The notes under the pieces are model-generated. The model ran no database searches, had not been told where the DNA came from, and saw only the letters and a list, made by a program, of their open reading frames with translations. A stretch of 41,023 nt of DNA from a virus (lineage: Duplodnaviria; Heunggongvirae; Uroviricota; Caudoviricetes), in the IMG/VR virus record IMGVR_UViG_2690316062_000001, positions 1 to 41,023 of that record; one strand, given 5' to 3'. Positions 381-41,023 of this stretch are shown one piece after another. Within the stretch, counting starts at the first letter, position 1. Every line of letters begins with the position of its first letter. A program made the translations under genes and the position numbers.

Positions 381-383
381 GGA

Positions 384-968
384 TTACTCCGGATATTTAA
401 AAATTACGTAGGTATGCGAAGGGCAGAGTTTGTTAAGCACGCACTCGACAACGGTGTCGCCCCAGATACGCAGTGCGGAATCACAGGGATCGCCACATGT
501 CATCCAGGTGGTGTTGGTGGCGGCTGGCATGTTGACCTGCCAGTAATAACGCCATTCCGGCGCATTCACTGCGTCAGTACAGGCCGATGAGCAGGTGAAC
601 GTGCTTTTATCGTATCGCGTGATAGTGGCGTCTGGTCTGCCCAGGGCAGCAAGCTGTGCAAGATAAAAATCCTCATTGATGCCGCCCGCCAGATTAACCT
701 TCGCATCCAGCCGTTGCTGACGCTGGCGAAGGGTCTGTGTCCCTGCGGGAATACATTCATCCGGCAGACCGCACAGACGCTCCCAGCGGTTTATCAGTTC
801 AGTGGTGGTGCGCGGATCCAGCTCCCGCATCAGGGCATCCGCACGCTGATGAACGCGGGTTAATGACGGTGCCGCACCGGCAATCGCCGGATCGCTGACT
901 GACCACGCCGGACCGGGCGGCAACAGTGCCGACAACAGACGGATATAATCATCGTTTGTCACGTCCAT
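384..968 (-). CDS. Tail/baseplate protein, Mu gp48-like (DUF2313-type)
   Basis: 194-aa ORF, overlaps upstream baseplate J gene by 10 nt; position and size fit the last baseplate gene before the fibre in Mu-type tail modules. Confidence 0.55.
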
Positions 969-2017
969 GAAATCGTCCCCAGTACCGCCAGTTCATTTTT
1001 TGCAATGGAGATATTGTCCACCGGTGCAAGCAACTGATGGCTGTATTCCCCGTTCGCACCGGAAATCGCCTCACTGATACGCGATACCTTCAGTTCTCCC
1101 TGCGGATAACCATCACGCAGCAGGAACGAACGCAACTCCGCGGTAATGGCAGCCCGTATTTCCGGTGTGTCCGGCGTCACGCGGATATGAAAATCCACCG
1201 TATGTGCCACCGGCCTGAATACATACAAATCAGAGCCTGCCACCGGGGCCAGTGGCCCGATATGTTGTCTTGCTGCCGTTTCCGTTGATTCTTCCGGAAT
1301 GGGATTAATCAGGTCACTGCTGGCAATCATCACACCGACAGTTCCCGTTCCCATCCAGTGACGGTATGTCCATGCGCGGGTAATGCCGGGCACTTCTTTA
1401 GCCCAGACGACATAGTCCCCGTCAGCCCCGCCCTGAGGCGTCCAGTAATACCGCTCAATGACGCGGGCGCGCCACGTTTCCAGCTCTTCAGTATCAAATC
1501 CACCTGTCAGGGTATCTGCCACGCCGGAAGACGGCAGACCATTCACCGGCGTGACCAGGATTAATGACGTACCGTCGTCAGCGTTACCGACCGCGCCTGC
1601 ACTTGAGCAGGCGATCGGCACGCGCAGGACACCACTGGAGCTGGTTGCATCGGCAGTTGCCGTGTACTGAACCAGGTCATCGCGCTGAATAACACTCCCG
1701 GCGGTCACCTTCAGGCCATCGCTGACACCTTCCCAGCGCATATACCCGCTGGCAGCCGTGGCCCCCTTGCGCGGACACCGTTTCATCGCAGCATGTCGCG
1801 CCAGCCAGGACTCATCGCACAGGTCAGGCAGCATGTTCATTGCCAGATAATCGATGTACCCGTAAACCGTATGCAGCGCCGCCGCATACACCTTTGCCCG
1901 CACGTCTTCATCCATGCGCCGGAGCGTGTCGCTGACGTCCAGCCTGGCGAATAAATCGTTACGGAGCATACTGATATTTTCTGCCAGCGTCGGGCGCTGA
2001 AATTCACTGTCCGCCAT
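959..2017 (-). CDS. Baseplate J-like protein (Mu gp47-like)
   Basis: 352-aa ORF in baseplate gene run; overlapping starts and stops with neighbours typical of a structural operon. Confidence 0.65.
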
Positions 2018-2432
2018 GCGTTATCGCACTCCACAGATCATCAAAAGAAATCATTACCGGTCCGTCACGACGCCAGAGAGTGATACTGTTACCCAGTTCA
2101 TTAATCCCGGTGCGGCGGATATCCAGATCAATACGGGACACCACGCCGTCATCAGTCATCCATTGCAGGCATTCGCGGATATACCCCCTTACCGTCTGCA
2201 CCAGCTGATTGGTCAGTTTGCTGCGCTGAAGCAGCCACAGTCGGGAGCCGTAACGGTCATTCTGTACCGCAGGCCAGGTATCCCCCCACCATCCCATCGG
2301 GACGTCGGCGTTGTCATCAGGCTCCGCCCGCCGCCAGGTAAACAGGGAAATCACCACGGCGCGGGTCAGCGGATCCAGCGGTGCGCTGGCGCAGGTGCGT
2401 TTACCGTTCACCGTCAGCCACAGTTCCATCAT
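2004..2432 (-). CDS. Baseplate protein, Mu gp46-like (phage GP46 family)
   Basis: 142-aa ORF between spike and J genes; order matches Mu-type baseplates. Confidence 0.55.
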   Translation of the reverse strand: MMELWLTVNGKRTCASAPLDPLTRAVVISLFTWRRAEPDDNADVPMGWWGDTWPAVQNDRYGSRLWLLQRSKLTNQLVQTVRGYIRECLQWMTDDGVVSRIDLDIRRTGINELGNSITLWRRDGPVMISFDDLWSAITHGGQ

Positions 2433-2977
2433 GCCTCCATCGCTTTATCAGGTTTGTCGGTGTTACTGCCCTGACCGTTCTCTCTGTGACGATGCCCATT
2501 ATAGGCAAGCCGCATCGCTGACATGGTGGTGCCGCCGGAGTCGCACAGGTCTTTCACCTGTCCTGTCACTTCCAGGTCCATTTCAAAACGCGCTTTAGGT
2601 GAATTGCGAAACGTGATCGTTTTACCTGCACCGTCCACCACAATCCCCTCCCGGGTCAGCGTCACGGACTGCCCCTGATCGTCATAGACAGCCACCTCAC
2701 CCGTCTGCAGCCCTTTCAGGCGGTAGCGCCGGTCCGACACCGTAACAACCACCGCATGAGAACGGTCGCCATCCGGAAACAACACCACCGCTTCCGCACC
2801 GCTGTTTGCCCTTGCGGTAAAACCGTAGGGTTCAAGATGTTCAACCCCGGCTTTGGGTTCACCGGCAATCAGGGACACATCCACGGTCTGACATTTCGTG
2901 GCGGCACTGATACTTTTCACCACTGCCCGCCCAATCAGGCCGAGGAGTTGTCGCTGCATGGCTTCAATCGTCCTCAT
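2429..2977 (-). CDS. Baseplate assembly protein V / central spike (Mu gp45-like)
   Basis: 182-aa ORF, ATGA overlap with next gene, downstream of hub protein gene. Confidence 0.6.
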   Translation of the reverse strand: MRTIEAMQRQLLGLIGRAVVKSISAATKCQTVDVSLIAGEPKAGVEHLEPYGFTARANSGAEAVVLFPDGDRSHAVVVTVSDRRYRLKGLQTGEVAVYDDQGQSVTLTREGIVVDGAGKTITFRNSPKARFEMDLEVTGQVKDLCDSGGTTMSAMRLAYNGHRHRENGQGSNTDKPDKAMEA

Positions 2978-4056
2978 CAGAACGGGTCCTCCTGTACTCT
3001 GGCTTTTTTCTTTTTCCGCGCGCCGGGGGCTTCGGGTTCAGGCAGATAAGCATCAGGTGGGCCGACACGGATTTCCGTCAGGGTGCCGTTCTGGTCCTGA
3101 GTAAACGTGACTTCCGAGACAAGCAGTTCGGTATTGTCGAAACCACAGACCGGATCGAAGACAATCACCCGCTGGTTGGGCTGCCACAGCGTACCGTTAC
3201 CCTGTCGCCAGCCCTGCACCACATAGGTGGTTTCATCCGTCCGCGCCGCCCGTTGCCGGGCTTCAAAGTCAGCACGCGCGATACAGCCTGCCCCCGTGGC
3301 CTGCCCTGTCTGCCTGATATACATCGGACGGTAACGGGCAATAAATGCGTCCTCTGTGCGGGCCCGCAGCGCGGTGGTGGTGGTCTCACCGAAATCATCG
3401 TCGTTTCCGGCACGCTGCCCCGCCACCTGGTAAACAGAAAATCGCTCCCGGATACTCTTCTCCGTATCGCAGGAAAGGATGTTTTCCCCGAGTACCAGCG
3501 CAGTATGTGCCCGCGTTGAGCCAATACCGCCAATCACCAGCCTGCCGTGCGGGTCGTCGTAAGCCAGTGCCTGCTGCTGACCGAGTATTTTGTTGATTAC
3601 CTCAATCACCGTTTCACCGTGATCAGGCTGAACATCAGGAATAACACCCGACGGCGCACCGCTGTTCACCACCTCAATACCGAAAGGCGCAGCAAGCGCC
3701 TGCGCAATCTGCACCAGCGAGCGTCCGTTAAACTGTGTCGGTTCGGCTGCACAGTCAATCAGGTCTGCCGTCAGACTACGTCCGGCAATACCGGTGCTGA
3801 CCGAACGGGCATCGTAACGAACGGGCGTCGCCTCCACCCAGCCGGTGATCACCAGCTCATCACCAATCAGCACTTCCACTTTTGAACCATTTTTAATGCG
3901 CGGCTGAAGCGTGGTGATACCCTCATCTCCCGGCCACTGGCGGGTGATCTCCACACTGAAATCCCGCGCCAGCCGTTCAATACCGGCACCGATGCGCACC
4001 GATGTCCAGCCATTCCACTCCCGGCCATTTACCCGTAGCGTGACATTGTCGTTCAT
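2977..4056 (-). CDS. Baseplate hub / tail protein (Mu gpP-like, late control D family)
   Basis: 359-aa ORF after the DNA circulation gene; 4-nt overlap with it. Confidence 0.6.
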   Translation of the reverse strand: MNDNVTLRVNGREWNGWTSVRIGAGIERLARDFSVEITRQWPGDEGITTLQPRIKNGSKVEVLIGDELVITGWVEATPVRYDARSVSTGIAGRSLTADLIDCAAEPTQFNGRSLVQIAQALAAPFGIEVVNSGAPSGVIPDVQPDHGETVIEVINKILGQQQALAYDDPHGRLVIGGIGSTRAHTALVLGENILSCDTEKSIRERFSVYQVAGQRAGNDDDFGETTTTALRARTEDAFIARYRPMYIRQTGQATGAGCIARADFEARQRAARTDETTYVVQGWRQGNGTLWQPNQRVIVFDPVCGFDNTELLVSEVTFTQDQNGTLTEIRVGPPDAYLPEPEAPGARKKKKARVQEDPF

Positions 4057-5387
4057 TGCACTGGCACCTTCAGAGGGATCACCGGCACAAAGCCGGGATG
4101 CGTAATGGCATTACGCCGGATAATGTCCGCGTCACGCGCCGCGTTATCAAACCAGGTCGCCGCCAGCACCAGCGCGGGTAAAACCTCATCCGGTGTGCGC
4201 TGAATGATCCGTGCAGACTGTTCAAGGCGCGTGTTGATATCCGCATTCAGATCTGCTTTCACCCGGCGCAGCGCCAGAAACAGCGCATCACTGGTTGTAC
4301 GGGACAACTCCTTATCAATTGCCGTATTCAGTGTGTCGCGAATGTCAGTCAGTTCTTCCCACGTCGGCAGATCAACCGTGTTTTTCACCGCCGGTGCATT
4401 GTTCAGTGCCGGATGCGTGACGGAAGGCCAGCCGGTGCTCTGCGCAGCTGTTGTTGCCTGCCCCACTGCGGCATTCTGCATCACCGCGGAAGTTGTTGGC
4501 GCAGGCAATCGGGTGACGGCATACGCCGCTTCGCTGATTGCGGTCGTACGAAGGGTGCTGGCAACCACGTTACGCTGCTGCGTCGCCGTGGCGGTGGTTT
4601 TACTGTCCGTTTTCCAGACGCCGCGCGGTTGCAGATCGCTGCCGAGGCTGACACCGGAAAGCGTTTTGATCATGGTGACCAGGTCGCTGGCGTTACCATA
4701 AAGGCGTTTCCCGGTACGCCACATTTTCTGCACCTGCTCAACGAAATTTTTGCCTGACGATGGCGGCGGCAGAAGTACCGAGATATCCCCCTGCAACAGC
4801 CTGGCGGCATCCGATACGGCAGAATCCACCACTTTCATCGCATCAGAAACATACCCCAGCATTATGCTGGCATTACCGATAACGTCGTTCTGCACGAAAT
4901 CCGCCACACCATCGATACTGAAACCGCTGAAGCTGTCACTGATGCAGTCATCCAGTGCAGAACAGGATGACATCAGCGTCTGCGCCGTCGCCGCACCTGA
5001 TGTGGGGTAAGAGAGTTCTCCTGCTTCGACAAACTTCAGGTCAAAGCGGACAATACGCCCTTCACTTTTCGATGTGCTGACCCGAACTTCCCCGTCAACA
5101 CAGACTTTCAGCTCACCATATGTCGGGTGGACAAGCGTGCCGGGACCGGGTTTATTCAGCGCTTCAATCAGGCGATCGCGCTGGTCAAAGCAGTCATCTC
5201 CCACCACATAAGCTGTGATGGACGGGCGGAAAGTGACTTTTCCCAGATCTTCGGTATAGGGCTTGTCGCGGTTCGGGTATTCATGTGTTTCCACACGGCG
5301 ACCGGTTCCCGCACTTTCTTCTTCAACCTTAAACGGCACACCTCGAAATGACGCATCCTGAAGCCTGTCTTTCCACGTCATATACAC
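4053..5387 (-). CDS. DNA circulation protein (Mu gpN-like)
   Basis: 444-aa ORF; N-terminus MYMTWKDRLQDASFRGVPFKV...THEYPNRDKPYTEDLG...PGPGTLVHPTYGEL matches the recalled Mu N signature. Confidence 0.7.
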   Translation of the reverse strand: MYMTWKDRLQDASFRGVPFKVEEESAGTGRRVETHEYPNRDKPYTEDLGKVTFRPSITAYVVGDDCFDQRDRLIEALNKPGPGTLVHPTYGELKVCVDGEVRVSTSKSEGRIVRFDLKFVEAGELSYPTSGAATAQTLMSSCSALDDCISDSFSGFSIDGVADFVQNDVIGNASIMLGYVSDAMKVVDSAVSDAARLLQGDISVLLPPPSSGKNFVEQVQKMWRTGKRLYGNASDLVTMIKTLSGVSLGSDLQPRGVWKTDSKTTATATQQRNVVASTLRTTAISEAAYAVTRLPAPTTSAVMQNAAVGQATTAAQSTGWPSVTHPALNNAPAVKNTVDLPTWEELTDIRDTLNTAIDKELSRTTSDALFLALRRVKADLNADINTRLEQSARIIQRTPDEVLPALVLAATWFDNAARDADIIRRNAITHPGFVPVIPLKVPVQ

Positions 5388-5390
5388 TCC

Positions 5391-5421
5391 GAAAATAAAA
5401 AAGCCACCTATTAGAAGGTGG
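5391..5421 (-). terminator. Rho-independent terminator after tail-operon moron
   Basis: Minus strand reads GCCACCT-tctaat-AGGTGGC followed by TTTTTTATTTT, immediately 3' of the 5443-5973 ORF. Confidence 0.6.
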
Positions 5422-5442
5422 CCTTGTAATGAATTTTATTAA

Positions 5443-5973
5443 TTAGCGGGTCAGAAACAACGAATCTTTATACTTTTGCTGTTGTTCATTTAAATACTTA
5501 GCTGTTTCATCGCTGGCAAATGGAAATATTACCGTATTTTTAGGCATGGTAATTTCTTTTTTGTCCAGCGTCAGAGTAAACATAGGAACATACTGAGCAG
5601 AGTAACGCACCGCAGAAACGAGCTCTAGTTTAGACTCTTCAATAACACTTAAATTATCCAGGCTAACTTTCTCTTCATCTTTTTTCTTTGACGCATTTAA
5701 AGTTTTTATTACTTTATTTAATTTCTCCTGAAAATCCTCCTTAAAGTTTTCAGGATTGCCGTCGACAACAAGAATCTGTTCACCCTGATTATCTGGAAAA
5801 ATAATCTTTGCACTTATCAATTTATTTTCTTTATAAACATCACCAAGTTTTATGGCTCCTCCAGATAACTGAATAATATGTTCATCTTTAAAGGAGATGT
5901 TGCCAGAGATTATGAGAGATGAAAAAATAGCCGCTGCTCCAAGAATTACACTTGCTGTGATATAGCCTTTCAT
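5443..5973 (-). CDS. Hypothetical membrane-anchored or secreted protein (AT-rich moron inside tail operon)
   Basis: 176-aa ORF with hydrophobic N-terminus MKGYITASVILGAAAIFSSLIISG; visibly AT-rich compared with GC-rich flanking tail genes; own terminator. Confidence 0.6.
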   Translation of the reverse strand: MKGYITASVILGAAAIFSSLIISGNISFKDEHIIQLSGGAIKLGDVYKENKLISAKIIFPDNQGEQILVVDGNPENFKEDFQEKLNKVIKTLNASKKKDEEKVSLDNLSVIEESKLELVSAVRYSAQYVPMFTLTLDKKEITMPKNTVIFPFASDETAKYLNEQQQKYKDSLFLTR

Positions 5974-6064
5974 TTTTCGCCTATTAACATTTTTCTAAAT
6001 GTGCATTAATTCTATCACTCTATTTATGACTTACAACCAGCAATACATGTGAGGGGAATCCTGG

Positions 6065-7897
6065 CTACCAAAATCGGGTATAGCCAACATCGTGATTTAT
6101 ATCAATGCCACTGGAGCGTGTTTCCGTAACCCGCATACCTGGTGGCATATTTATAAATGATACCTTGATCTCACCATCAACTTTTGGCGCGGTAGCTTTA
6201 TTAATCATGAAGGGATTCGAGCCTGTGGCATCGGAGGCGTTGTTTGCCTGAGCCGGATCCACCGCCGGATAAGGAGTGTATCCCCGTGCCGGTATTCCCG
6301 TCCCATAAGCATCATAAGCACCCGCGCCCCACTGCGCAGAGTTAATGGCATCGACCGTGTCACCGGAACTGTCGGTAAACCACTCAATAATTGGCTTCAG
6401 CTTGTCCCACATATCCTGAAACCACTTAACAACCGGCCCCCAGTTATTGATCACCATCCCCAGCGGCGACCAGGCAAAAACTTTCTTAAGGAGTTCCCAG
6501 CCAGCCTCAAAATAAGGACCAATGGTTTCCCAGAGCTTCTTGAAATAAGGTCCGACAACATCCCAGTTAGTGATAATTAATCCCGCAGCCAGGGCTATCG
6601 CCGTCGCAATCATGCCAATCGGCGTCATCGACATGATCCTGCTGACAATGCTGATGGCACTGCCCACGCCCATCAATCCCAGTTTCAGAATCGCAAGACC
6701 GGCAGCAAGCCCGACGACGGCGCGAATAACCCGGGGATTTTCATCCGCAAACTTCGTGAATTTTTCCCCCAACTCCCCCAGCCATTGCGTGATATTTTTG
6801 GCGTCACCAGAAAATGCGCCGCCAATAGCCGCAAGGCCGTTAGTTGCGGTCCCCGTCATTGCCTCCCACAGGTTGGACAGCGTACCAAGCTGTGCCTGAA
6901 CACGTTTATTCAGGCTGGCCTGTTTATTCATCTTTTGCTGGATCTGATCGTAACCATCCTTTCCTTTATCGATCAGCGCATTGACCACCTGAAGGGTTTC
7001 GGCATCATCACCAAATATTGCCTTAAGTACACCTGTTCGCTTAACGTCGGTAAGTTTTCGCAGCTTTGCCAGTTGCTTAAACATGTTATCAAGACCGCCA
7101 AAACTTCCTTTGCCGTCAGTAAAATCGAGCTGTACCCCGAGTTTCTGACGGGCCATAACTTTATTGACGTCCCTGATTTTCTTAACGCTTAATCCGGACT
7201 GGATAACTTTTCGCAGGGCATTACCTGCCGACTCCCCGTTCATCCCCATCTGATCCATCATGACGCTGATGGGGGCAAGGCTCTGTGCAGCCTGAAGACC
7301 GTCCTTGTTCACCATCTTCAGAACAGAACTGGTTTTAGTGAAGAAGGACAACATGTTGGTATCGTCAACGCCCAGATAAAACGCCTTCTGGATAGTGTCG
7401 AACAGCCCCATCATGTCTTCTGACGCCGTTCCGGTAGCATCCTGCATCTTTGCAGCAAACTCAGCAGCCGCTTCCGGTGTTTTTTTTAGTTGTACCGCAA
7501 GATAAGCTGTCGCTTTACCCACACCGCCAAGAATATTTTCTGCCGGGATCCCCTGACGCACCAGCATCTGCATCATGTTCTGGAAATCAGCCGTTGTACC
7601 GGGTAGCTGGTTACCCAGGCCAATAGCCAGTTTATTGATGCCCTGAAAGCTCTTTCCGACCTCGCCGTTCGCATCCATCATGGCGACTTTCAGCCCGGTG
7701 GCGGCGTTTTCCTGATCGGCATAAGATTTCAGGGAAAGCGTCAGCCCCGCTGCCAATCCGCCACCAAGCGCCAGCCCACCCTGTGACGCCTCTTCCGCCT
7801 GGCGTTTAAATCCCCGGATTTTCTTTTGCATTTTCGACAGCGCGGGAGAAAGCCTGTCGACACCGGTGATCAACGCCTTAAGCTCAAATTCAGCCAT
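6065..7897 (-). CDS. Tail tape measure protein
   Basis: 610-aa ORF rich in Gly/Ala with hydrophobic segments, immediately after chaperone frameshift pair. Confidence 0.85.
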   Translation of the reverse strand: MAEFELKALITGVDRLSPALSKMQKKIRGFKRQAEEASQGGLALGGGLAAGLTLSLKSYADQENAATGLKVAMMDANGEVGKSFQGINKLAIGLGNQLPGTTADFQNMMQMLVRQGIPAENILGGVGKATAYLAVQLKKTPEAAAEFAAKMQDATGTASEDMMGLFDTIQKAFYLGVDDTNMLSFFTKTSSVLKMVNKDGLQAAQSLAPISVMMDQMGMNGESAGNALRKVIQSGLSVKKIRDVNKVMARQKLGVQLDFTDGKGSFGGLDNMFKQLAKLRKLTDVKRTGVLKAIFGDDAETLQVVNALIDKGKDGYDQIQQKMNKQASLNKRVQAQLGTLSNLWEAMTGTATNGLAAIGGAFSGDAKNITQWLGELGEKFTKFADENPRVIRAVVGLAAGLAILKLGLMGVGSAISIVSRIMSMTPIGMIATAIALAAGLIITNWDVVGPYFKKLWETIGPYFEAGWELLKKVFAWSPLGMVINNWGPVVKWFQDMWDKLKPIIEWFTDSSGDTVDAINSAQWGAGAYDAYGTGIPARGYTPYPAVDPAQANNASDATGSNPFMINKATAPKVDGEIKVSFINMPPGMRVTETRSSGIDINHDVGYTRFW

Positions 7898-8072
7898 GTG
7901 TGCGTTTCTCCTGCTCTATCCTGTTTGCCTGACTGACCAGCAAGGGAATTTCACTGATCGGCATATTCAGCAATTCGAAGGGATTAATGCGCCAGTAGCT
8001 GGCGCAGTCAAAGAAGCGATCAGTGAGGTATTCAGCCGTCAGGCCTGGAGGAAAAAACCAGCCACAAGCCAC
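7890..8072 (-). CDS. Tail assembly chaperone, -1 frame C-terminal extension (reached by programmed frameshift)
   Basis: ORF overlapping the 3' end of the 8039-8308 gene in the -1 frame; reading through the slippery site gives ...WFFPPGLTAEY... Confidence 0.55.
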   Translation of the reverse strand: MACGWFFPPGLTAEYLTDRFFDCASYWRINPFELLNMPISEIPLLVSQANRIEQEKRTHG

Positions 8073-8308
8073 GCCGCTGCATTCAGGTCTGCCGGAGACA
8101 TCTGGTCGACAGAGCTTTGCGGCACTTTCGCCAGCCGCACAATGTATTTCGACACCACATGCGCCAGAAGTCTGACGGACTCATCCTGATTCATCTGGTA
8201 GGGATACCCCAGCTCGCGGACATCCTTCCCGGTGGGTTCATCAAACTCCAGTACGGAGAGTGTCTCACCATGAGCGATAATCGGTTTCTTTAACTCAAGC
8301 TCTTTCAT
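8039..8308 (-). CDS. Tail assembly chaperone (0-frame product)
   Basis: 89-aa ORF between tail tube and tape measure genes, the conserved position of the G/GT-type chaperone. Confidence 0.6.
   Translation of the reverse strand: MKELELKKPIIAHGETLSVLEFDEPTGKDVRELGYPYQMNQDESVRLLAHVVSKYIVRLAKVPQSSVDQMSPADLNAAAWLVAGFFLQA
8051..8057 (-). promoter_or_regulatory. Slippery heptamer T_TTT_TTC for -1 ribosomal frameshift
   Basis: Minus strand GCT GGT TTT TTC CTC CAG GCC TGA; heptamer T TTT TTC lies 4 codons before the stop of the upstream ORF, and the -1 frame continues into 7890-8072. Confidence 0.6.
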
Positions 8309-8664
8309 TACTGGTAATCCCCTTCTTCACCGTGGAACTCAAGATCAACCGTGCCTTCTTCGGCATTATGGTTCGCTTCTCCGTGCAGCCAGGCGGACGA
8401 CAATACATAGACCTGACCGTTCGCCAGCTCGGCAGTGATGGTCATCTCATCAGACGAGGTGATTTTGCTCACCGGAAAATTCTTCGGCACCTTGAAGGTC
8501 CCTTTGACATAAGGCGCACGGTGAGTTTCCTTGCGGTCCACTGAACCGTCCAGGCCGATGATGTCATCATTGACCGTCCTGTTCATGGGCACCTCAATGC
8601 CGCCGGTCAGCGATAGCTGCTGACCGTCAATTTTGAAATAACAGGTTCCCCCGATACGGGCCAT
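8308..8664 (-). CDS. Tail tube protein
   Basis: 118-aa ORF directly after sheath gene; MARIGGTCYFKIDGQQL... is tube-like. Confidence 0.75.
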   Translation of the reverse strand: MARIGGTCYFKIDGQQLSLTGGIEVPMNRTVNDDIIGLDGSVDRKETHRAPYVKGTFKVPKNFPVSKITSSDEMTITAELANGQVYVLSSAWLHGEANHNAEEGTVDLEFHGEEGDYQ

Positions 8665-10160
8665 TATGCAGACTCCTCTGAATACTGAAGACGGAACTGG
8701 TTAACCACGGCAAAGACACGCAACTGGTTAACATAGTCAGGCGGGAACAGCGTGTTCAGGCGGTTCGGATCGCTGGCATCACGCTCCACAACCAGGTACT
8801 GCTTAAACAGTTCGTAGTTTTCCACGATCCCCGCACGCTCAAGCTGACGGTAGGTTGCCAACAGTTCCCCTTTGATCACCGCCGGGGTGACAATCGCCTG
8901 ACCGGGACCAAAGCGGGTACCGTCACTGGCAAGCTTGTGACGCCCGTACTTACTGGTAATGACGGATTTCAGTTTGCGCAGTACATACGCGCTGGTATGC
9001 AGTGTCTCACTGTCGAGGTAGCTGTTATCCGCAACCCCGTAAGCGTTTTTCCTGTACGTGGTGACATCACGCTGAATGCGCAGTACCCCGCTTTCGACAT
9101 ACGCCGTTGCCACGCCATGAGACAGCAGGGTCTGTTGTTCGGTCATCGTGAACCGTTTCCCCTTCGGCGCAGGCAGCATACCCACCAGCTCACCGGTCTG
9201 CGTGGGACGTGCCGGATCGTTGCGGATAAACACCGCTGCGCGGGCGGTACGGCTTGCCGCAAGTTCGTCGGCAGGCGTCTGGGTCTCTTTTTCGTACCCT
9301 GCCAGGGTAATGTGCTGCTGGTTAAACTGGTCACCTGCGGTCACCAGTTCTGACAGCGTGCCGATCTTTGCCGTATACACATGACCATACAGCTGACGCG
9401 CATAGCTCCAGCGACCGCTGGTATCGTTCATCTCGGTCACCAGCGTGTTAACGGAGGCCGTGTCGTTGAACGGCAGGCCGATATAATCAAACGGCTCATC
9501 CGCCATTGCAGCCACCGCGCCGGTGAGAACCGGAGCACCCGTTCCGGCGGTACCCGTCGCCACGGCAATCTGTACGCCCGCTGGCAGCACTTCGCCCCCA
9601 CCAAAGCCGTAGTAATTGAGGCTGACAGGAATTTCATTCCCGCAAAGCCCCTTATGACGCGCGGTAAGTGTGACCACGCCTGCCGAAGATGAAGCCGTAA
9701 ACGGCAGGGCCGGAACGGCATTGATGGCATCTTTGATACTGCTGGCAATCGTCGTGACGTTATCGCCGTTGGTCACCGGAGCCTGCACGCGGGTACGTCC
9801 CACATAGACATTCACCGTGCCGCTTTCGGTTGCTTCCCCGGTCACCGCCAGCGTAACCGTTGCCGCCGCGCCTGTGGCTTCCGGAACGGCAATCACATAC
9901 AGCTCACCAAACGGGTCTGTCTGGCGATAAGCCTCGACCATACGCGCCAGCTGACTTCCCGCACCACAAATCTGGCGTGCATAGTCTGCCGACGGCATCA
10001 GCACCAGACTGTTGGCAACAATCTCTGCACCGTTATTGGCATGACCAATCAGCAGCGATGCTCCGCTGTCCTGTGCAGTATTCGCAGCCTGGTTATCCAT
10101 TTCCGCATAAAACAGCGGAACCAGCGTATTCGACGGAATGGTGTTAAAGCTTATCGTCAT
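8664..10160 (-). CDS. Contractile tail sheath protein
   Basis: 498-aa ORF, sheath-typical size, followed by tube gene with 1-nt overlap. Confidence 0.85.
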   Translation of the reverse strand: MTISFNTIPSNTLVPLFYAEMDNQAANTAQDSGASLLIGHANNGAEIVANSLVLMPSADYARQICGAGSQLARMVEAYRQTDPFGELYVIAVPEATGAAATVTLAVTGEATESGTVNVYVGRTRVQAPVTNGDNVTTIASSIKDAINAVPALPFTASSSAGVVTLTARHKGLCGNEIPVSLNYYGFGGGEVLPAGVQIAVATGTAGTGAPVLTGAVAAMADEPFDYIGLPFNDTASVNTLVTEMNDTSGRWSYARQLYGHVYTAKIGTLSELVTAGDQFNQQHITLAGYEKETQTPADELAASRTARAAVFIRNDPARPTQTGELVGMLPAPKGKRFTMTEQQTLLSHGVATAYVESGVLRIQRDVTTYRKNAYGVADNSYLDSETLHTSAYVLRKLKSVITSKYGRHKLASDGTRFGPGQAIVTPAVIKGELLATYRQLERAGIVENYELFKQYLVVERDASDPNRLNTLFPPDYVNQLRVFAVVNQFRLQYSEESA

Positions 10161-10322
10161 CGGTGTTCACCTTTTTATTCACGCGCCGGATATCACCCGC
10201 TGCTTCACGGCGCAGCCAGTAGTTGTTCTCGTCAACATTTCGCCCTTCGGCGGGCAAAAGGTCGCCGCGGGCAGGGTCAGGCACTGACCGCCCTTTAACA
10301 GGTTTGACAAACATGAGGATCC

Positions 10323-10883
10323 TCAGGAAGGAAGGGTTATTTCGGTGTGATGTTCGATATCGCCGTCAGGCCCGTTACCGGGCTCGAGATAATCAACATC
10401 AATCGCCAGCGTTTGCAGTTCACCCAGACTGTTCAGATCATCCTGCTGGCGGGTATCGTCTTCAGTCAGCTCGCTGATGACCGAAAAATCGAACTGATAA
10501 ATCAGCTCATGACGATTCAGATCCAGCAGCGTGCCGCCGTCATAGGTAATCGGGTTACCGCACGCTTCCGGGTTCCAGCCCAGCAGGGCCTTAAAGAGCA
10601 TTTGCCGGACATCGTCCACCACATCATACGAGGAAAACTGACCGCGCTCATCACGCCCGTTACTCAGTATGACAACCACGGAGAAGCCCTCTTTCAGCTC
10701 CTGCCAGTAGTCGGTCTGGCTTTTGTTTTCTCCCGGAGAGTCATCACCCGGTACCACATACGCCGCCGGGAGTCTCAGCTTTCCGACCTCCGGCAGATTT
10801 TTGAACTGTGCCGCGCCTGCCACCCGGTTTTCAAAATACGGGCAGCGGGCACGCAGCGCAGCAATAACAGGCGTCAGTTTCAT
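10323..10883 (-). CDS. Virion structural protein (tail completion / DUF1834-like)
   Basis: 186-aa ORF between head-tail joining genes and sheath gene. Confidence 0.45.
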   Translation of the reverse strand: MKLTPVIAALRARCPYFENRVAGAAQFKNLPEVGKLRLPAAYVVPGDDSPGENKSQTDYWQELKEGFSVVVILSNGRDERGQFSSYDVVDDVRQMLFKALLGWNPEACGNPITYDGGTLLDLNRHELIYQFDFSVISELTEDDTRQQDDLNSLGELQTLAIDVDYLEPGNGPDGDIEHHTEITLPS

Positions 10884-11386
10884 CTGTGTCGTCGCTCCGG
10901 CTTCAGTGATTTACGCAATTCCCGCGCCAGAAAATAGCGTGTCCAGCTGCGGTTCTTTTCAAGCGTTTCCACCATGAAGTTATTACGTGGAGCCAGTCGC
11001 CAGCCGCTGCCACCGGATGCACCACGATGATGACTACGACGACGTTTTGCTCCTCCCCGGACACCAAAAAACAGAAACGCCGGATAGAAGTCACCAGAGA
11101 TCATCCGGTTCCCCTTCCCGTTGCGCTGGTTAGGGGCAATGCGTGTCATAAAACCGGCTCGCTTTTTACTGGCTCTCGGCACCATATAACCAATCGAACG
11201 AGCCAGGCGTCCGGTCTGATAACCGGGGTTTTCACCCGGTGCCGACCGCGCACGGCGCATCACCAGCCGACGGGCATCACGCATATGACGCTGCCCAATC
11301 GTGACAAACGCCCGCCGGACACGGGCGCGGTTAAAGCGCATCTCGGCGGGCTGCTGAACATCAACGTGAAAAAAGGGAGTCGCCAT
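10880..11386 (-). CDS. HK97 gp10-like tail component
   Basis: 168-aa basic ORF in head-tail joining block. Confidence 0.55.
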   Translation of the reverse strand: MATPFFHVDVQQPAEMRFNRARVRRAFVTIGQRHMRDARRLVMRRARSAPGENPGYQTGRLARSIGYMVPRASKKRAGFMTRIAPNQRNGKGNRMISGDFYPAFLFFGVRGGAKRRRSHHRGASGGSGWRLAPRNNFMVETLEKNRSWTRYFLARELRKSLKPERRHR

Positions 11387-11771
11387 TGCTGCCTCCGTGA
11401 CTCTGCCTACATTCGCCCAGCTCCGTACACTCCAGCAGCAGAAAGCGCCGCGCCCCGTTCAGATCACGCTGACGTTTCACCCGGTACACACTGTCATCAC
11501 AGACCACCTCATAATCAGCAGTGATCCCCCGGCGGTAACGAATGGTGATGTAATGGGTGATGGCGTCCCCGGTCTGCGCGGTTTCCTGCCAGGTGGTGGC
11601 ACTGGTCTGGATAACCTTCGCCCATGTCCGGAACGTAACCGGGTATTGAGACTCCACGCCAAAGTTATCCGCGGGCATATCCACCCGCTGGCGGATCAGG
11701 ACGCGTTTATTCAGTTCACCGGGGTCCGGCAGAATGTAGGTTGCGCTGGTCTGCGCCTGACGAATTTTCAT
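11361..11771 (-). CDS. Head closure / head-tail adaptor protein
   Basis: 136-aa ORF following gp6-like connector gene. Confidence 0.55.
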   Translation of the reverse strand: MKIRQAQTSATYILPDPGELNKRVLIRQRVDMPADNFGVESQYPVTFRTWAKVIQTSATTWQETAQTGDAITHYITIRYRRGITADYEVVCDDSVYRVKRQRDLNGARRFLLLECTELGECRQSHGGSNGDSLFSR

Positions 11772-12091
11772 TGCGGAAAGTACCTGTACGGGCCGACAAG
11801 CCAGCCAAAACTCTGCGGCATGTCGAGTTTCTCCACTTCCGTAACCGACGAGCGGTTTTCGTAAAAATGGCTGATAAGCATCAGCATCCCCAGACGAATA
11901 TCATCCGGCAGGTGCAGCCCGTCCGGATCGCTGTCCGGAATGGTTTCATCCGGTGCATAGAGCTTCCGGTTCAGATACGTTTCCGTCCGCTTTTGTGCCG
12001 CACAGGCCAGCAGTTGCAGATGGCGGTCATCAGCATCGAAATCCTCATCCAGCCGGAGTTGGGCTTTAATCTCTTCCATTGTCAGAAGCAT
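11768..12091 (-). CDS. gp6-like head-tail connector protein
   Basis: 107-aa acidic ORF MLLTMEEIKAQLRLDEDFDADD..., typical of the HK97 gp6 family. Confidence 0.6.
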   Translation of the reverse strand: MLLTMEEIKAQLRLDEDFDADDRHLQLLACAAQKRTETYLNRKLYAPDETIPDSDPDGLHLPDDIRLGMLMLISHFYENRSSVTEVEKLDMPQSFGWLVGPYRYFPQ

Positions 12092-34502: not shown

Positions 34503-34824
34503 GGCCTGTCAGTTTCTTAAGATATCCAGACCAACCGCCACCAACTGGATACGAACAGGCCGCCTACAGGCAACACGCAAAGACCCCACTAAACTAAAAT
34601 CTCCTTACCTCACAACACGACAAGCCTGCATTGCGGCGCTTCAGTCTCCGCTGCATACTGTCCAGGTGAGCGCGGGTGATGGCATAACAGAGGAAAGAAA
34701 ATGTCACTCTTCCGCAGAGGTGAAATATGGTACGCCAGTTTCACATTGCCGAACGGTAAAAGATTTAAACAGTCTCTTGGAACAAAGGACAAAAGGCAGG
34801 CGACAGAGCTCCATGACAAGCTAA
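34474..34824 (+). CDS. xis: Excisionase (P22 Xis-like)
   Basis: 116-aa product from [32 protein letters not shown] (HTH); overlaps the int start by about 120 nt. Confidence 0.65.
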
Positions 34825-35864
34825 AGGCTGAAGCATGGCGGGTCAGCAAACTTGGTGAAATACCTGATATGACGTTCGAGGAGGCGTGTATCAGGTGGCT
34901 CGAAGAGAAAGCACATAAAAAATCACTGGACGATGACAAAAGCCGGATCGGATTCTGGCTTCAACATTTCGCAGGAATGCAACTAAGAGACATTACTGAA
35001 TCAAAAATTTATTCAGCAATGCAGAAAATGACGAACCGGCGTCATGAGGAAAACTGGAAACTCAGGGCAGAAGCATGCAGAAAAAAAGGGAAACCAGTTC
35101 CAGAATACACGCCAAAACCAGCGTCCGTTGCAACGAAGGCTACGCATCTTTCATTTATAAAGGCCCTGCTAAGAGCCGCAGAGCGTGAATGGAAAATGCT
35201 GGATAAGGCACCAATTATTAAAGTGCCTCAACCAAAGAATAAACGGATCCGCTGGCTGGAGCCCCATGAAGCACAAAGGCTGATTGATGAATGTCCGGAG
35301 CCATTAAAGTCTGTTGTTGAATTTGCACTGGCAACAGGCTTAAGACGCTCGAACATCATCAACCTTGAATGGCAACAAATAGATATGCAGCGCCGGGTGG
35401 CATGGATAAACCCGGAAGAGAGTAAATCAAACCGCGCAATTGGCGTTGCGCTGAATGATACTGCATGTCGCGTATTGAAAAAACAAATCGGGAATCATCA
35501 CCGTTGGGTATTTGTGTACAAGGAAAGCTGTACCAAACCAGACGGAACGAAAGCGCCAACAGTAAGGAAGATGCGGTATGACGCAAACACAGCCTGGAAA
35601 GCAGCGCTGAGACGGGCTGGTATTGATGATTTCAGATTTCACGACTTGAGACACACCTGGGCAAGTTGGCTGGTTCAAGCCGGAGTCCCGTTGTCAGTGT
35701 TACAGGAAATGGGAGGCTGGGAGTCTATCGAAATGGTTCGTCGATATGCTCACCTTGCACCTAATCACCTTACCGAACACGCACGGCAAATAGACTCGAT
35801 CCTGAACCCATCGGTCCCAAATTCGTCCCAGTCAAAAAATAAGGAAGGTACTAATGATGTGTAA
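34701..35864 (+). CDS. int: Tyrosine integrase (P22/DLP12 Int-like)
   Basis: 387-aa [45 protein letters not shown]...; catalytic-domain motifs ...[10 protein letters not shown]...RYAHL; stop 16 bp from the att core. Confidence 0.9.
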
Positions 35865-35880
35865 CTTATTGATTTAAATG

Positions 35881-35928
35881 GTGCCGATAATAGGAGTCGA
35901 ACCTACGACCTTCGCATTACGAATGCGA
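35881..35928 (-). other. att core: 48-bp copy of the 3' end of tRNA-Thr(CGU) (thrW-type), not a complete tRNA
   Basis: Reverse complement GCATTCGTAATGCGAAGGTCGTAGGTTCGACTCCTATTATCGGCACC corresponds to anticodon loop (CGT), T-arm and acceptor 3' strand of tRNA-Thr; flanking sequence on the 5' side does not continue the tRNA. Confidence 0.7.
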
Positions 35929-36012
35929 AGTTTTTATATTTTAACTGCTTGAACAACCATCAGAAATCACAAATTTATCATTTTAAATCATAATATTAAA
36001 ACAAAAAACCTG

Positions 36013-36038
36013 TTGATGTAAATTGATGAGTGTTGATG
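36013..36038. repeat. Three TTGATG repeats phased at 10 bp upstream of second integrase
   Basis: TTGATG at 36013, 36023, 36033; similar GTTGAT / ATCAAC copies at 37416-37447 after the gene. Confidence 0.4.
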
Positions 36039-36110
36039 TTTATCCTTTCAATTTACTTACACCAGCCGTTACATTACTGTAAACCGTAATCCCCAACAGG
36101 AACCCTAAAA

Positions 36111-37430
36111 ATGGCGCTTTCAAGACAAAAACTAACCTTCGAACGAATTCGAAGATTTACTTTACCTGAAGGGAAAAACCAAGTTTTCCTTTGGGATACG
36201 GACGTAACAAGCTTGGCATGTCGAGCAACTCGTGGAGCAAAAGCCTTTGTATTCCAAAGCCTGTATGCGGGAAAAACCCTTCGCATGACCATTGGCAACA
36301 TTAACGATTGGAGGATTGATGATGCGAGGGCCGAAGCCAGGCGACTGCAAACATTAATCGATACTGGGATAGATCCGCGTATAGCTAAGGCGGAAAAAAT
36401 TGCTGAAGCGGAATCACAGCAGGCTGAATCTCGTAAAACGAAGGCAACCTTTTCAAGCGCTTGGGAAGATTATCTTGATGAATTGAGAACCGGAATCAGC
36501 GCAAAAACTAAACGCCCCTACTCTGCACGCTACATTGCCGATCACGTTAACTTGTCCAGTCGTGGAGGCGAAAGTAAAAAAAGAGGCCGGGGCCCAACCT
36601 CACCTGGGCCACTGGCTAGCCTGCTCGACCGACCATTATCAGAACTAACACCAGAGAACATTGCCGAATGGCTAAGTACAGAGAGACAAAATCGGCCTAC
36701 CGTCACTGCTCATGCCTACCGTCTGTTGCGTGCATTCATCAAATGGGCTAATTACCAGAAAAAATATCAGGGAATAATCCATGGCGATCTTGCACAAGAT
36801 CATAACGTGAGAAAAATGGTTCCAATATCAGCGAGCAAAGCGGGAGATTGCTTACAAAAAGAACAGCTCAAAAGCTGGTTCAGTGCCGTGCGTAGCCTCA
36901 ATAATCCCATTGCATCAGCCTATCTCCAAGTGCTTTTGCTCACCGGTGCACGGCGTGAAGAAATTTCCTCACTTCGCTGGTCTGACATAGATTTCAAATG
37001 GTCAAGCATGCGAATTAAAGACAAGATCGAAGGCGAGCGAATTATCCCCCTCACTCCCTATGTTTCTGACTTGTTACGCTCACTGATGGAGATCCCCAAT
37101 CGTGGTACAAACGAGGAGAATTGGGTTTTCAGAAGTAACAGCAAAAGTGGCAAAATTATTGAACCGCGTTCAGCACATAATAGAGCATTAACTCGCGCGG
37201 AGTTACCACATATCAGCTTGCACGGATTGCGCCGTAGTTTTGGGACCCTCGCTGAATGGGTCGAAGTACCAACAGGTATTGTTGCGCAGATTATGGGCCA
37301 TAAGCCTAGCGCTCTTGCTGAAAAGCACTATCGCCGCCGTCCATTAGATTTGCTAAGAAAATGGCATGAAAAAGTTGAATTATGGATCTTAGAAGAAGCA
37401 AAAATAAAAAACAACGTTGATAAGCGTTGA
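36111..37430 (+). CDS. Tyrosine integrase of second element (P4-type)
   Basis: 439-aa ORF; C-terminal LHGLRRSFGTLAEW...IMGHKPSALAEKHYRRR catalytic motifs (R, HxxR, Y). Confidence 0.85.
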   Translation: MALSRQKLTFERIRRFTLPEGKNQVFLWDTDVTSLACRATRGAKAFVFQSLYAGKTLRMTIGNINDWRIDDARAEARRLQTLIDTGIDPRIAKAEKIAEAESQQAESRKTKATFSSAWEDYLDELRTGISAKTKRPYSARYIADHVNLSSRGGESKKRGRGPTSPGPLASLLDRPLSELTPENIAEWLSTERQNRPTVTAHAYRLLRAFIKWANYQKKYQGIIHGDLAQDHNVRKMVPISASKAGDCLQKEQLKSWFSAVRSLNNPIASAYLQVLLLTGARREEISSLRWSDIDFKWSSMRIKDKIEGERIIPLTPYVSDLLRSLMEIPNRGTNEENWVFRSNSKSGKIIEPRSAHNRALTRAELPHISLHGLRRSFGTLAEWVEVPTGIVAQIMGHKPSALAEKHYRRRPLDLLRKWHEKVELWILEEAKIKNNVDKR

Positions 37431-37966
37431 TTTTATCAAATATCAACAACTTACATAAAATCACATGTGTTGACAGAAATTTTTTTTCAGTTATCTTTTA
37501 TTACTGCTAACTACATTCACTCACTAAGCAGGAGATTAACTACAGTGACTAACCCAATAACTGTATCAAGAGAAGACCGAAGTGCGGAAATCAGAGCGAG
37601 ATGGGGTTTACATCCGACTAAAAACAAAAGTTCTAATTTTTGGGAAACAACAATTCAGCGTTTTAATAATAGTAGTACTGACCGAATACTACCTCTTTGG
37701 CACCGTGTTTCAAAACTTTTAGTTGCTATTAGGAATGTAGTCAATACTATAACATGCCCTTTTCCACCAAAGGGGAATACTTCCCGCTCACGCCGAAGTT
37801 CAACAACGTCATCAAAAAACTCATCATCATCTTCATCGGATGGTAGTAGTAGCGACCCCGATCCCGATAGAGACCCCATATTCACCCCTTTTCATTTCAT
37901 TCTTTCATCTCTGTTAAAAACAATGATCGTCTTATTTGCCCACATATCAAATGTTGGGGTGATGAA

Positions 37967-38188
37967 ATGAGCGATATCAAACATCAAAAACCCTCTCAGT
38001 CACAACTAATTTCTACCCGCGAGTTAGCTAATATTATTGGCTATGAAGTACAAACTATTCGAGCTTGGCTTTGCAAAGACAAACTGCCTAATGGTTTACC
38101 GCGACCGAAGAAAATTAAAAACCGACATTATTGGTCACGTAAAGACATTGATAGATACCTATTAACCTTCTCAGTATATAGTAACTAA
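37967..38188 (+). CDS. AlpA/excisionase-like HTH DNA-binding protein
   Basis: 73-aa ORF LISTRELANIIGYEVQTIRAWL...; followed by perfect hairpin CCGGCTATTC-taaa-GAATAGCCGG at 38201-38224. Confidence 0.5.
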   Translation: MSDIKHQKPSQSQLISTRELANIIGYEVQTIRAWLCKDKLPNGLPRPKKIKNRHYWSRKDIDRYLLTFSVYSN

Positions 38189-38310
38189 TAGAGGCCTCCC
38201 CCGGCTATTCTAAAGAATAGCCGGGTTAGTTAATACAAACCTTCCATTAACAATGGGGGGAGATTAATACTATTTATCACATCTCACATTAACAAAATTC
38301 AAGGTCACAT

Positions 38311-39075
38311 ATGAAAAAACGCATCACTTTCAGCGTAAACAATAGTTCTACTATTGATGCAATTGACGACTATAGCAATGCAAAAGGATACTCCAGGTCA
38401 GAGGTGATATCATTTTTATTAAACGCCACAGTCCCAGCATTGAATAAAATAACATCGCAATATCATATAGCTCAAACTTTGGAGTCAACATTAGGCTGTA
38501 TTTTTGAAGAGAAGGCCCCGTCAATAGCACGGGGGGAGCCAAAATTAACTTACGAAGAGTTTTTTCATTCCGTCTGGAACACTCACATTCGACACCGGAA
38601 CGAGGTTATCGACCAGAATTTTTATGCACACAAAATATCTCATGATAAGATGGGGAAGAGTGAAAAAAAATTAATTCATGAAAAGCTCACATACATTATA
38701 AAAAGCTTCAATGTAAAAAAAGCAATTTTTATTTACACAGATCGGCGCGTGAACCACAAACATCTAATTGCAGGAGGGTTGTCAAATATCATACTGATAA
38801 AGGAAACAGTTTACGATGGTTGTTTTTTTGATTTGAGCAGCATTGTGATTATGCCAATCTTTGAACTTATTACATTTGGAATTGAAGAGGTATTGAAAAG
38901 AAATAAAATCCACCATAAACAATCATGCTATTGCTGGATACCAATTTATTACACAAATGATCTAGCGGTAATGGTCCCGGTGATTGCCGAAGGCGATACA
39001 CCTCAAAAGGCGATGAAAGGAGGAGATGCCATCATTATTAACCCCTTTAACGGTGAAGTAAACCATACTTTCTGA
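38311..39075 (+). CDS. Ribbon-helix-helix (CopG-like) N-terminus fused to about 200-aa domain of unknown function
   Basis: MKKRITFSVNNSSTIDAIDDYSNAKGYSRSEVISFLL is an RHH-type beta-strand/helix motif; the remainder has no motif I recognise; AT-rich. Confidence 0.5.
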   Translation: MKKRITFSVNNSSTIDAIDDYSNAKGYSRSEVISFLLNATVPALNKITSQYHIAQTLESTLGCIFEEKAPSIARGEPKLTYEEFFHSVWNTHIRHRNEVIDQNFYAHKISHDKMGKSEKKLIHEKLTYIIKSFNVKKAIFIYTDRRVNHKHLIAGGLSNIILIKETVYDGCFFDLSSIVIMPIFELITFGIEEVLKRNKIHHKQSCYCWIPIYYTNDLAVMVPVIAEGDTPQKAMKGGDAIIINPFNGEVNHTF

Positions 39076-39157
39076 TACCAATGTTAAGCATAACCACTTA
39101 GTTGCATACATCTCGACAGTATGGAGTTAGTACCTAATAGCTTGATGAGGGTAAAAG

Positions 39158-39334
39158 ATGCCTACTAACAAAGCAAAATCAAAGAAAATTCTAGGAAGGC
39201 CTGAAGGAAGTAAATATTACCATTTAATTCAGAGTGAGAAGGCTAAGCATTACTCTCAATCCAAGGTGGCAAAGATCTTAGGAATAAGTATTTCCACGGT
39301 AAAAAGACACTGGGATAACGGCATCTTTGGGTGA
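39158..39334 (+). CDS. Small HTH protein (uncertain)
   Basis: 58-codon ORF MPTNKAKSKKILGRPEGSKYYHLIQSEKAKHYSQSKVAKILGISISTVKRHWDNGIFG; below the ORF-track cutoff. Confidence 0.35.
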   Translation: MPTNKAKSKKILGRPEGSKYYHLIQSEKAKHYSQSKVAKILGISISTVKRHWDNGIFG

Positions 39335-39537
39335 TTATAATTGCAGAGTTGCTTTTTAAGTATTTTACTGCATGGGTAATGGGTTGATAACAAGTTTTAT
39401 TGTTGGAAAGGTATTATATAACAGTCATTACTATTAATAGTTAATTAATATAAATAACCACAGACATTCATCTATGTCTTATCATATTACTATATACGGC
39501 TTTAGAAAACCGTAGAACTAACTACAAGGGTATACAT

Positions 39538-40158
39538 ATGGAATTATATCATGGTTCCCATGGTGAGCATGTACTCGCCTATAGAAAGCATATTGAGCGA
39601 GTCGTTAATGATGCTGTCAGTGAATTCCCTAGAACAATGGCATTACGTGTTGATGCCCATTACCCCCCTATTTTAGATAGAGGTGATACGGTTTGCTGCT
39701 TTCCTAATCTAGAGCCTGGTGCCATATCCCGTTTCCGTAATGCATTAAATGCCATGTTGGAGGCCAATGAGAGAGCCAGAGCCGCCAACGGTAAAAGAAT
39801 ATATTCAAATCGTGTTCGTCATGTTTGGGTAAGGGAGTTTTCCGAAGAGGGGAAATGTCATTTTCATCTTGGTCTTTTTTTTAACAAAGATGCTTATTAC
39901 CATTTAGGTGATTATGAGGCTGAAAGCAATTTACGGATGATGATTGTAAGGGCATGGTACAGTGCCCTGGGGTTGGAACTGGATGATTATCCGGGATTAG
40001 TTCACTACCCTGAAAATTGTCGTTATATATTAGACGTCAATGATTTTAACTTTGAAGGAGAATACAATAAATTACTGAATCGCTTCGACTACCTAGCTAA
40101 ACTCGATACAAAAGCATATGGAGATGGCGACCGTAGCTTCGGCTGCAGTCGCGGTTAA
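39538..40158 (+). CDS. Inovirus Gp2-family protein (YagK/YfjJ-like)
   Basis: 206-aa ORF MELYHGSHGEHVLAYRKHIERVVNDAVSEF..., resembles recalled CP4-type island proteins. Confidence 0.6.
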   Translation: MELYHGSHGEHVLAYRKHIERVVNDAVSEFPRTMALRVDAHYPPILDRGDTVCCFPNLEPGAISRFRNALNAMLEANERARAANGKRIYSNRVRHVWVREFSEEGKCHFHLGLFFNKDAYYHLGDYEAESNLRMMIVRAWYSALGLELDDYPGLVHYPENCRYILDVNDFNFEGEYNKLLNRFDYLAKLDTKAYGDGDRSFGCSRG

Positions 40159-40213
40159 TTTATTTTTTACAGCAATGGCCTTTCTTATAGATGGAAAGGC
40201 CAGACCTTATATA

Positions 40214-40936
40214 TCAAGACGATGGTGAGCGATAAAGTATTGTTTTCAAGTAATCATCTGTTGCAGTAAACTCAGGGAGTTGGCCACTCATGGCCTGTGT
40301 TAGTGGAATAATCTTTGTCCTGACTCCCATCCCCCTGAAATCAACGTAACCATAATCACGTAAGACTTCCATAATAATCGTATTACGTGGTGAACGCTGA
40401 CCTGCAACCATCTTTTCAACCGACATCGAATTATTCAGTGCCCCTGGGCTAATAACTTCAAATCGATTGCTATACAAGCCAATCTCTATCTCAACAAAGC
40501 GTGTCCAGTCACGATGAGCCAGTGCATTTACAACAGTTTCGCGAATAGCTTCCAGTGGATAGTACCAGGTTGTTTCACGACGTAGATGCGTATCGGGTAG
40601 AGGAGCCTCTGAAGTGATAAAGGGCATGATAGTCGACATCAAACGCTCAATCAATCCACCATCGATCAAAGCCTTTCCGGCTTCCTCAGTATCAAAACGC
40701 CCAACCATTGGACCATCCAGAATATCATCGAGTAACGGTTGGTACTCCTTATCCTCGCTGGCAAACGCAAAGACTCGGATACCTGATTGACGTAAATACT
40801 GGCGTGGATGTTTACCGAAGAGCACCAACCCGGCAATTGTACAACAGACATTTTCACCCGCTTGTGTCAGAAAACTTAATCCTAACAACCGTTGTTGCCA
40901 TTGTTCCTGAGTCTCAGGAATATCAGGATCACGCAA
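40214..40936 (-). CDS. AlbA_2 / RecG-C-terminal-like putative DNA-binding regulator (5' end unresolved at window edge)
   Basis: 240 codons from a TTG; motif VVNALAHRDW; in-frame TGA at 41012-41014 and an ATG in another frame at 41019 suggest a frameshift or a start outside the window. Confidence 0.5.
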   Translation of the reverse strand: MRDPDIPETQEQWQQRLLGLSFLTQAGENVCCTIAGLVLFGKHPRQYLRQSGIRVFAFASEDKEYQPLLDDILDGPMVGRFDTEEAGKALIDGGLIERLMSTIMPFITSEAPLPDTHLRRETTWYYPLEAIRETVVNALAHRDWTRFVEIEIGLYSNRFEVISPGALNNSMSVEKMVAGQRSPRNTIIMEVLRDYGYVDFRGMGVRTKIIPLTQAMSGQLPEFTATDDYLKTILYRSPSS

Positions 40937-41023
40937 AATATCACGCAGATAATTCAGTAAACGTGCGGCTTTGTTGAATAAATCGAACTTTTGCTGAGTT
41001 GAAGGATCAGATCACGCATCCTC

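Follow-up and report, generated by a model that had tools for sequence, protein, structure and literature searches.

The right edge of the 41,023-nt stretch of DNA analyzed here (the window; IMG/VR record IMGVR_UViG_2690316062_000001) raises the question of what became of the 5′ part of its last gene. The original prediction described a Gp2-like gene followed by a convergent, AlbA_2-like gene without a convincing start, and offered three readings of the latter: a frameshifted pseudogene, a sequence error, or a true start lying outside the window. The layout it described was borne out by the open reading frame (ORF) listing, including the 206-aa plus-strand ORF, the convergent minus-strand ORF with its listed TTG start, the in-frame TGA, and the ATG opening a 21-codon ORF in another frame. 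The features at this end of the window are as follows.

39538-40158, plus strand: YagK/YfjJ ORF, ATG start, 206 aa
40214-40936, minus strand: ORF convergent to the YagK ORF, 240 aa, first start codon TTG
40214-40966, minus strand: gene remnant, codons 161-410 plus the stop codon (40214-40216), with HATPase_c_4 present and AlbA_2 absent
40958-40966: TAAACGTGC, left copy of a 9-bp target-site duplication, codons A161-R162-L163
40967-41023, plus strand: first 57 nt of an IS903-group (IS5-family) insertion sequence (IS), transposase gene on the plus strand and mostly beyond the window
40967-40983: terminal inverted repeat GGCTTTGTTGAATAAAT, left end of the IS
41012-41014, minus strand: in-frame TGA, inside the IS end
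40954-41019, minus strand: 21-codon ORF MRDLILQLSKSSIYSTKPHVY (MRDLILQLSK...), ATG at 41019

The C-terminal region of the minus-strand gene was as good as had been claimed. Protein searches with its 250 native residues identified intact 410-aa proteins (P0001 and P0002) at 97 to 98% identity, and in tblastn residues 161 to 410 of P0001 aligned to window positions 40966-40217 with 98.4% identity and without a gap. The remnant carried no internal stop codons, and the indel that was to be located by aligning it to intact homologues does not exist. Pfam analysis of the minus-strand ORF identified HATPase_c_4 (PF13749; E value, 2.7e−14, above the gathering score) and did not find SLFN_AlbA_2 (PF04326). 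In P0001, SLFN_AlbA_2 spans residues 14 to 128 and HATPase_c_4 residues 319 to 403. The AlbA_2 domain is encoded wholly upstream of the junction with the IS, and this locus represents the remnant of a family member and not an intact member; the AlbA_2-like label is appropriate at the level of the family, with the AlbA_2 domain itself outside the window.

The homology ends at a single position. Using megablast against complete Escherichia coli genomes, window positions 40850-40966 matched AlbA-family gene fragments at 99.1%, and the alignments of E. coli homologues broke off exactly at 40966, with other sequence from 40967 onward. The segment 40967-41023 matched approximately 6,900 places in 1,947 of the 5,426 complete genomes; among the matches listed, the annotation was that of an IS5-family or IS5-like element IS903B-family transposase. 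When positions 39100-41023 were searched, a few records collinear with the two genes were recovered alongside thousands of multi-copy matches, with up to 47 places per genome and many of them plasmid borne. The sequence from 40967 starts GGCTTTGTTGAATAAATCG, which we take to be an IS903-type terminal inverted repeat; those of the IS903 group are about 18 bp long and begin GGCTTTGTTGAATAAATC... The lost plausible start, the in-frame TGA, and the out-of-frame ATG together represent the gene/IS junction: both the TGA and the ATG belong to the IS, and the TGA and the 21-codon ORF are by-products of reading the IS end on the opposite strand.

Because the window itself holds 57 nt of the IS, the length and transposase of the element were read in window-identical relatives. 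The full element (11430-12485 in contig L012) measures 1056 bp, carries perfect terminal inverted repeats of 17 bp (ends compared in L012), and encodes a 307-aa transposase (L012 11462-12430; DDE_Tnp_1_5, E value 1e−38; DDE_Tnp_1, E value 6.6e−32). It shares with IS903 and IS903B the GGCTTTGTTGAATAAAT repeat, a length of ∼1.06 kb, a single 307-aa DDE transposase, a 9-bp target duplication, and multi-copy occurrence on enterobacterial chromosomes and plasmids. Searches recovered full-length copies of the 1056-bp element at 100% identity from plasmids found in Klebsiella, Serratia, Citrobacter, and E. coli; such copies are labeled "IS5 family transposase," whereas the copies labeled IS903B in RefSeq were ∼88% identical to it. 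The element is thus an IS903-group member and probably a sibling of IS903B rather than IS903B proper. Gene disruption by IS903B with a 9-bp duplication has been reported for cirA in Klebsiella (PMC13618097). The event at the end of the window is of this already known kind, a gene disrupted by an IS of a familiar type.

What lies past the window edge was examined in related contigs. Three of them (L006, L011, and L012) were 99.98 to 100% identical to window positions 35878-41023 and ran on into the IS, and the gene/IS junction was common to seven independent assemblies (L004, L005, L006, L007, L011, L012, and L013). In L005 to L007 and L011 to L013, TAAACGTGC was found at both ends of the IS (second copy at 12486-12494 in L012); the window shows the left copy only. 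The empty site was present in L009 and L010, which carry the same allele as the window (753-nt remnant, 100% identical) and read CAGTAAACGTGCTTCATCC, with one copy of the 9-mer, no IS, and a continuous reading frame. Exact-match scans of species-representative genomes for the junction and for the native 29-mer beside it returned no match.

Searching with P0001 (tblastn) placed codons 103 to 163 just past the IS in all IS-bearing relatives except L004, codons 161 to 163 being the duplicated target. The proposal that the true start lies outside the window was correct insofar as the story continues past the edge; the flank contains the IS, then 61 further codons, of which three belong to the duplicated target, followed by an IS3-family element. 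The same search did not recover codons 1 to 102 from the ten related contigs, within ∼10 kb of flank. The gene abuts the end of the IS3-family element at codon 102/103, and it had therefore been truncated at its 5′ end before the IS903-group insertion. The IS3-family element is in turn split by a group II intron-type reverse transcriptase gene (RVT_1 plus GIIM, 502 to 507 aa; L009/L010 11669-15095 and L013 15309-16817), and mobile elements nested in one another make up the region beyond the gene. In L004 (from 12486), the left junction was the same and the right IS end met unrelated sequence, which we take to resemble IS1, with neither a second TAAACGTGC nor codons 103 to 160. This arrangement implies a later IS-associated deletion or rearrangement in L004, and given that its right flank differs, the source genome of the window could be rearranged likewise.

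Overall, it is almost certain that the end of the window reflects an IS903-group insertion into an already truncated AlbA_2/HATPase_c_4 gene, followed by a contig break within the IS. The gene would first have lost codons 1 to 102 beside the IS3-family element. The 1056-bp IS903-group element would then have transposed into codons 161 to 163 of this Schlafen-AlbA_2/HATPase_c_4 gene, which forms part of a YagK/YfjJ-type integrative island, and would have duplicated the 9-bp target in doing so. The window is very probably a whole short-read draft contig. Short-read assemblers usually terminate inside multi-copy IS, and the contig presumably stops 57 nt into the element because the latter is multi-copy and the assembler was unable to extend it. 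We infer that the window end is such an assembly break and that the right-hand side in the window's own genome is that of the identical contigs.

Other readings of the same junction were weighed against this one. If a frameshift, or a sequencing or assembly indel, had occurred within 40940-41020, the gene would continue upstream as the MRDLILQLSK... ORF, and both the presence of that ATG-led ORF in another frame (40954-41019) and the run of the main frame into the TGA at 41012-41014 would fit. We consider this extremely improbable, however, since the gap-free alignment of P0001 reaches back to residue 161 (window position 40966) and has no continuation further upstream, whichever frame is read, the bases 40967-41023 belong to an IS end that recurs at thousands of unrelated positions, seven independent assemblies show the junction without a single base of difference, and codons 103 to 160, the true upstream sequence, are located 1056 bp further on, after the IS. 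From the idea of a frameshifted pseudogene only the non-intact gene remnant survives; no frame change occurs within the gene, and the IS starts at 40967. A sequence error is contradicted by the recurrence of the junction in those seven assemblies and by a remnant that is gap-free and 100% identical in nine contigs.

That the gene is intact, with its true start past the window edge and a long ORF to be gained from the flank, is suggested by the existence of intact 410-aa genes in other genomes and by a window that stops only 57 nt after the last homologous codon. Against it stand the in-frame TGA, the window-identical contigs, which enter the IS and not codons 1 to 160, and the recovery of codons 1 to 102 in 0 of 10 related contigs, and we regard an intact gene as very improbable; when the flank was added no uninterrupted longer ORF appeared, as the identical contigs continue into the 1056-bp IS. 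An assembly chimera, in which an IS end was misjoined to a gene that is uninterrupted in the source genome, is equally hard to credit. Contig ends located in repeats are prone to artefacts and the IS part here amounts to 57 nt only, but the 9-bp duplication and the next segment of the gene beyond the IS were recovered from independent NCBI isolate assemblies and ENA metagenome scaffolds. A target duplication is the signature of real transposition and not of misassembly.

With the IS insertion into a truncated gene as the preferred explanation, the start of the minus-strand ORF can be reassessed. In the alignment to P0001, the TTG of the 240-aa ORF corresponds to codon 171 of the 410-codon gene, and judged from this alignment the TTG at 40936 is a mechanical ORF start and no real gene start. 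The claim that the ORF lacks an in-frame ATG applies to its 5′ part only; further in, an in-frame ATG first occurs at codon 77 of its 240 codons (40708-40706). Public records assign one and the same remnant differing, arbitrary starts (240 aa and 207 aa); KUH21177.1 (E. coli, 207 aa, ARC89_11015), for example, equals the window ORF from residue 35 on, bar the annotated start residue. A promoter scan of the minus strand across 40937-41023 did not find a σ70-like site, and IS-driven expression of the remnant was thus without support. Given that the first 102 codons had already been lost beside the IS3-family element, we infer that the remnant is a nonfunctional 3′ fragment that is not expressed as a functional protein. 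Formally, the C-terminal fragment may retain residual function, as the remnant is stop-free and invariant in the nine independent contigs in which the 753 nt are 100% identical; this identity may simply be the mark of a recent event.

Compared with complete Schlafen-AlbA_2 plus HATPase_c_4 proteins, the window remnant shares the HATPase_c_4 domain and is without the N-terminal 160 codons, including the whole of AlbA_2. Family members are annotated as "RNA-binding domain-containing protein," "putative DNA binding domain-containing protein," or "ATP-dependent DNA helicase RecG" C-terminal-like. NCBIfam held no model for an AlbA_2/HATPase_c_4 protein, a PDB sequence search returned 3lmm, an "uncharacterized protein," as the sole relative, and a literature search for proteins combining the two domains found nothing relevant. 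PADLOC membership of P0001 among pAgo or pAgo-associated "Aga_SIR2..." proteins was considered and rejected, the matches being to partial domains only (E value, about 1e−14).

The neighborhood of full-length genes was more informative. In L014 to L017, an 883-aa gene (3329-5980, plus strand) ends 20 bp before the intact 410-aa gene begins, the pair spanning 3329-7233 in L014; the 883-aa product matched the NCBIfam model TrlF_fam_ATP (E value, 2.8e−165) and, more weakly, the anti-phage protein Ppl in PADLOC (E value, 1.5e−40). A TrlF-family gene was also identified in the E. coli contigs L001 (5958-8609) and L002 (5618-8269), and in the contigs seen such a gene always precedes the intact or full-length AlbA_2/HATPase_c_4 gene. 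In E. coli, the immediate neighbors also include a type III restriction-modification gene. A literature search on TrlF returned only spectroscopy (TRLFS) matches. The TrlF/Ppl-like and type III restriction-modification neighbors suggest that the AlbA_2/HATPase_c_4 gene may be defence-island cargo, and it is possible that the TrlF-like and AlbA_2/HATPase_c_4 genes form a candidate two-gene defence cargo that was lost in the lineage of the window.

Disruption of this gene was not confined to the window. In the contigs seen, it had been independently inactivated in at least five ways.

L001 4705-5937 and L002 4365-5597 (E. coli 0H26 and PCP06171): two in-frame stops, at P0001 Trp66 and Trp294, IS-free
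Codon 102/103: truncation by the IS3-family element
Codon 161: IS903-group insertion
L008 10677-11018: IS30-like (HTH_38/rve) element at about codon 309
P0033, 218 aa, Citrobacter freundii: first ∼30 residues (MKSLTTVRKKSPNYPVEFKIKMVELS...) fused at about residue 213

As a consequence of the two in-frame stops in L001 and L002, RefSeq annotates three separate coding sequences there. From their sequence, the first ∼30 residues of P0033 resemble the beginning of a transposase ORF, and its protein cluster has 221 members, one 218-aa member occurring on at least 1000 contigs. Recurrent selection for loss of the gene, perhaps within an anti-phage module, or a C-terminal fragment that is functional in itself, could be proposed from this pattern; we consider such a reading unlikely, and neutral decay in an IS-rich island accounts for the inactivations equally well.

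The disruption by an IS implies no new biology in itself, and its relevance is mainly to annotation. In many Enterobacteriaceae records, the "ATP-binding protein" calls of 240, 218, and 207 aa represent pieces of a gene disrupted by an IS. Several NCBI records name the remnant ORFs [quoted passage not shown] which, set against the HATPase_c_4 domain, is probably a propagated misannotation. A frame problem at the end of a contig, as found here, is a normal mark of a short-read assembly broken inside a multi-copy IS.

The gene convergent to the remnant has remained whole. The YagK/YfjJ gene at 39538-40158 is intact, and its 206-aa product matched YagK_YfjJ_C (PF11726) over profile positions 2 to 170 of 170 (E value, 1.5e−51; 175.1 bits versus a cut-off of 25.8), in keeping with the Gp2-like label given to it. 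The exact protein was indexed in 130 blocks of public assemblies and is named "inovirus Gp2 family protein" in Enterobacteriaceae records, following NCBI naming. Its match to REP_ORF2-G2P fell below the cut-off (25.2 versus 27.8), and the likeness to filamentous-phage replication proteins is therefore only faint. Upstream of it, the window carries the following genes.

36111-37430, plus strand: island tyrosine integrase, 439 aa, Phage_integrase and Arm-DNA-bind_3 (Pfam)
38311-39075, plus strand: UCP007319-family gene, 254 aa
39158-39334, plus strand: helix-turn-helix (HTH) gene, 58 aa, weak HTH matches

Related contigs, the intact islands of L014 to L017 among them, follow the same order as the window (integrase, small ORFs, UCP007319, 58-aa ORF, and YagK), and in the intact islands the 410-aa gene, in its P0002 allele (database name Klebsiella aerogenes), is likewise convergent to YagK. 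No tRNA gene was found in the window. The arrangement resembles that of E. coli islands of the CP4-57/CP4-6 type (yfjJ/yagK), with an integrase, small HTH or AlpA-like genes, and a YagK/YfjJ_C gene in one orientation, followed by cargo; the resemblance presumably extends to the K-12 islands CP4-57 and CP4-6 themselves. In E. coli L001 and L002, the neighboring genes are annotated intA, alpA, YfjI family, and inovirus Gp2 family, and the window island differs from these in having UCP007319 and the 58-aa HTH gene where L001 and L002 have alpA-yfjI.

Left of the island, most of the window (88-35870) is a prophage. The first part (88-12000) was ∼97% identical to the Shigella and Escherichia phages SfII, SfI, vB_EcoM-689R6, and SKA5, and the prophage regions matched included tail, sheath, and baseplate genes. 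A second tyrosine integrase gene, that of the prophage (387 aa, 34701-35864), directly abuts the island integrase gene. Identity between the window and the otherwise identical contigs begins at ∼35874-35920 (∼6337-6383 in L008 to L012), and left of that point the contigs differ, carrying 392- to 404-aa integrases, a primase-type satellite, or UvrD-like cargo (alongside the island integrase also in L009/L010 and L014). The position beside the island int gene thus looks like a hotspot for tandem integration.
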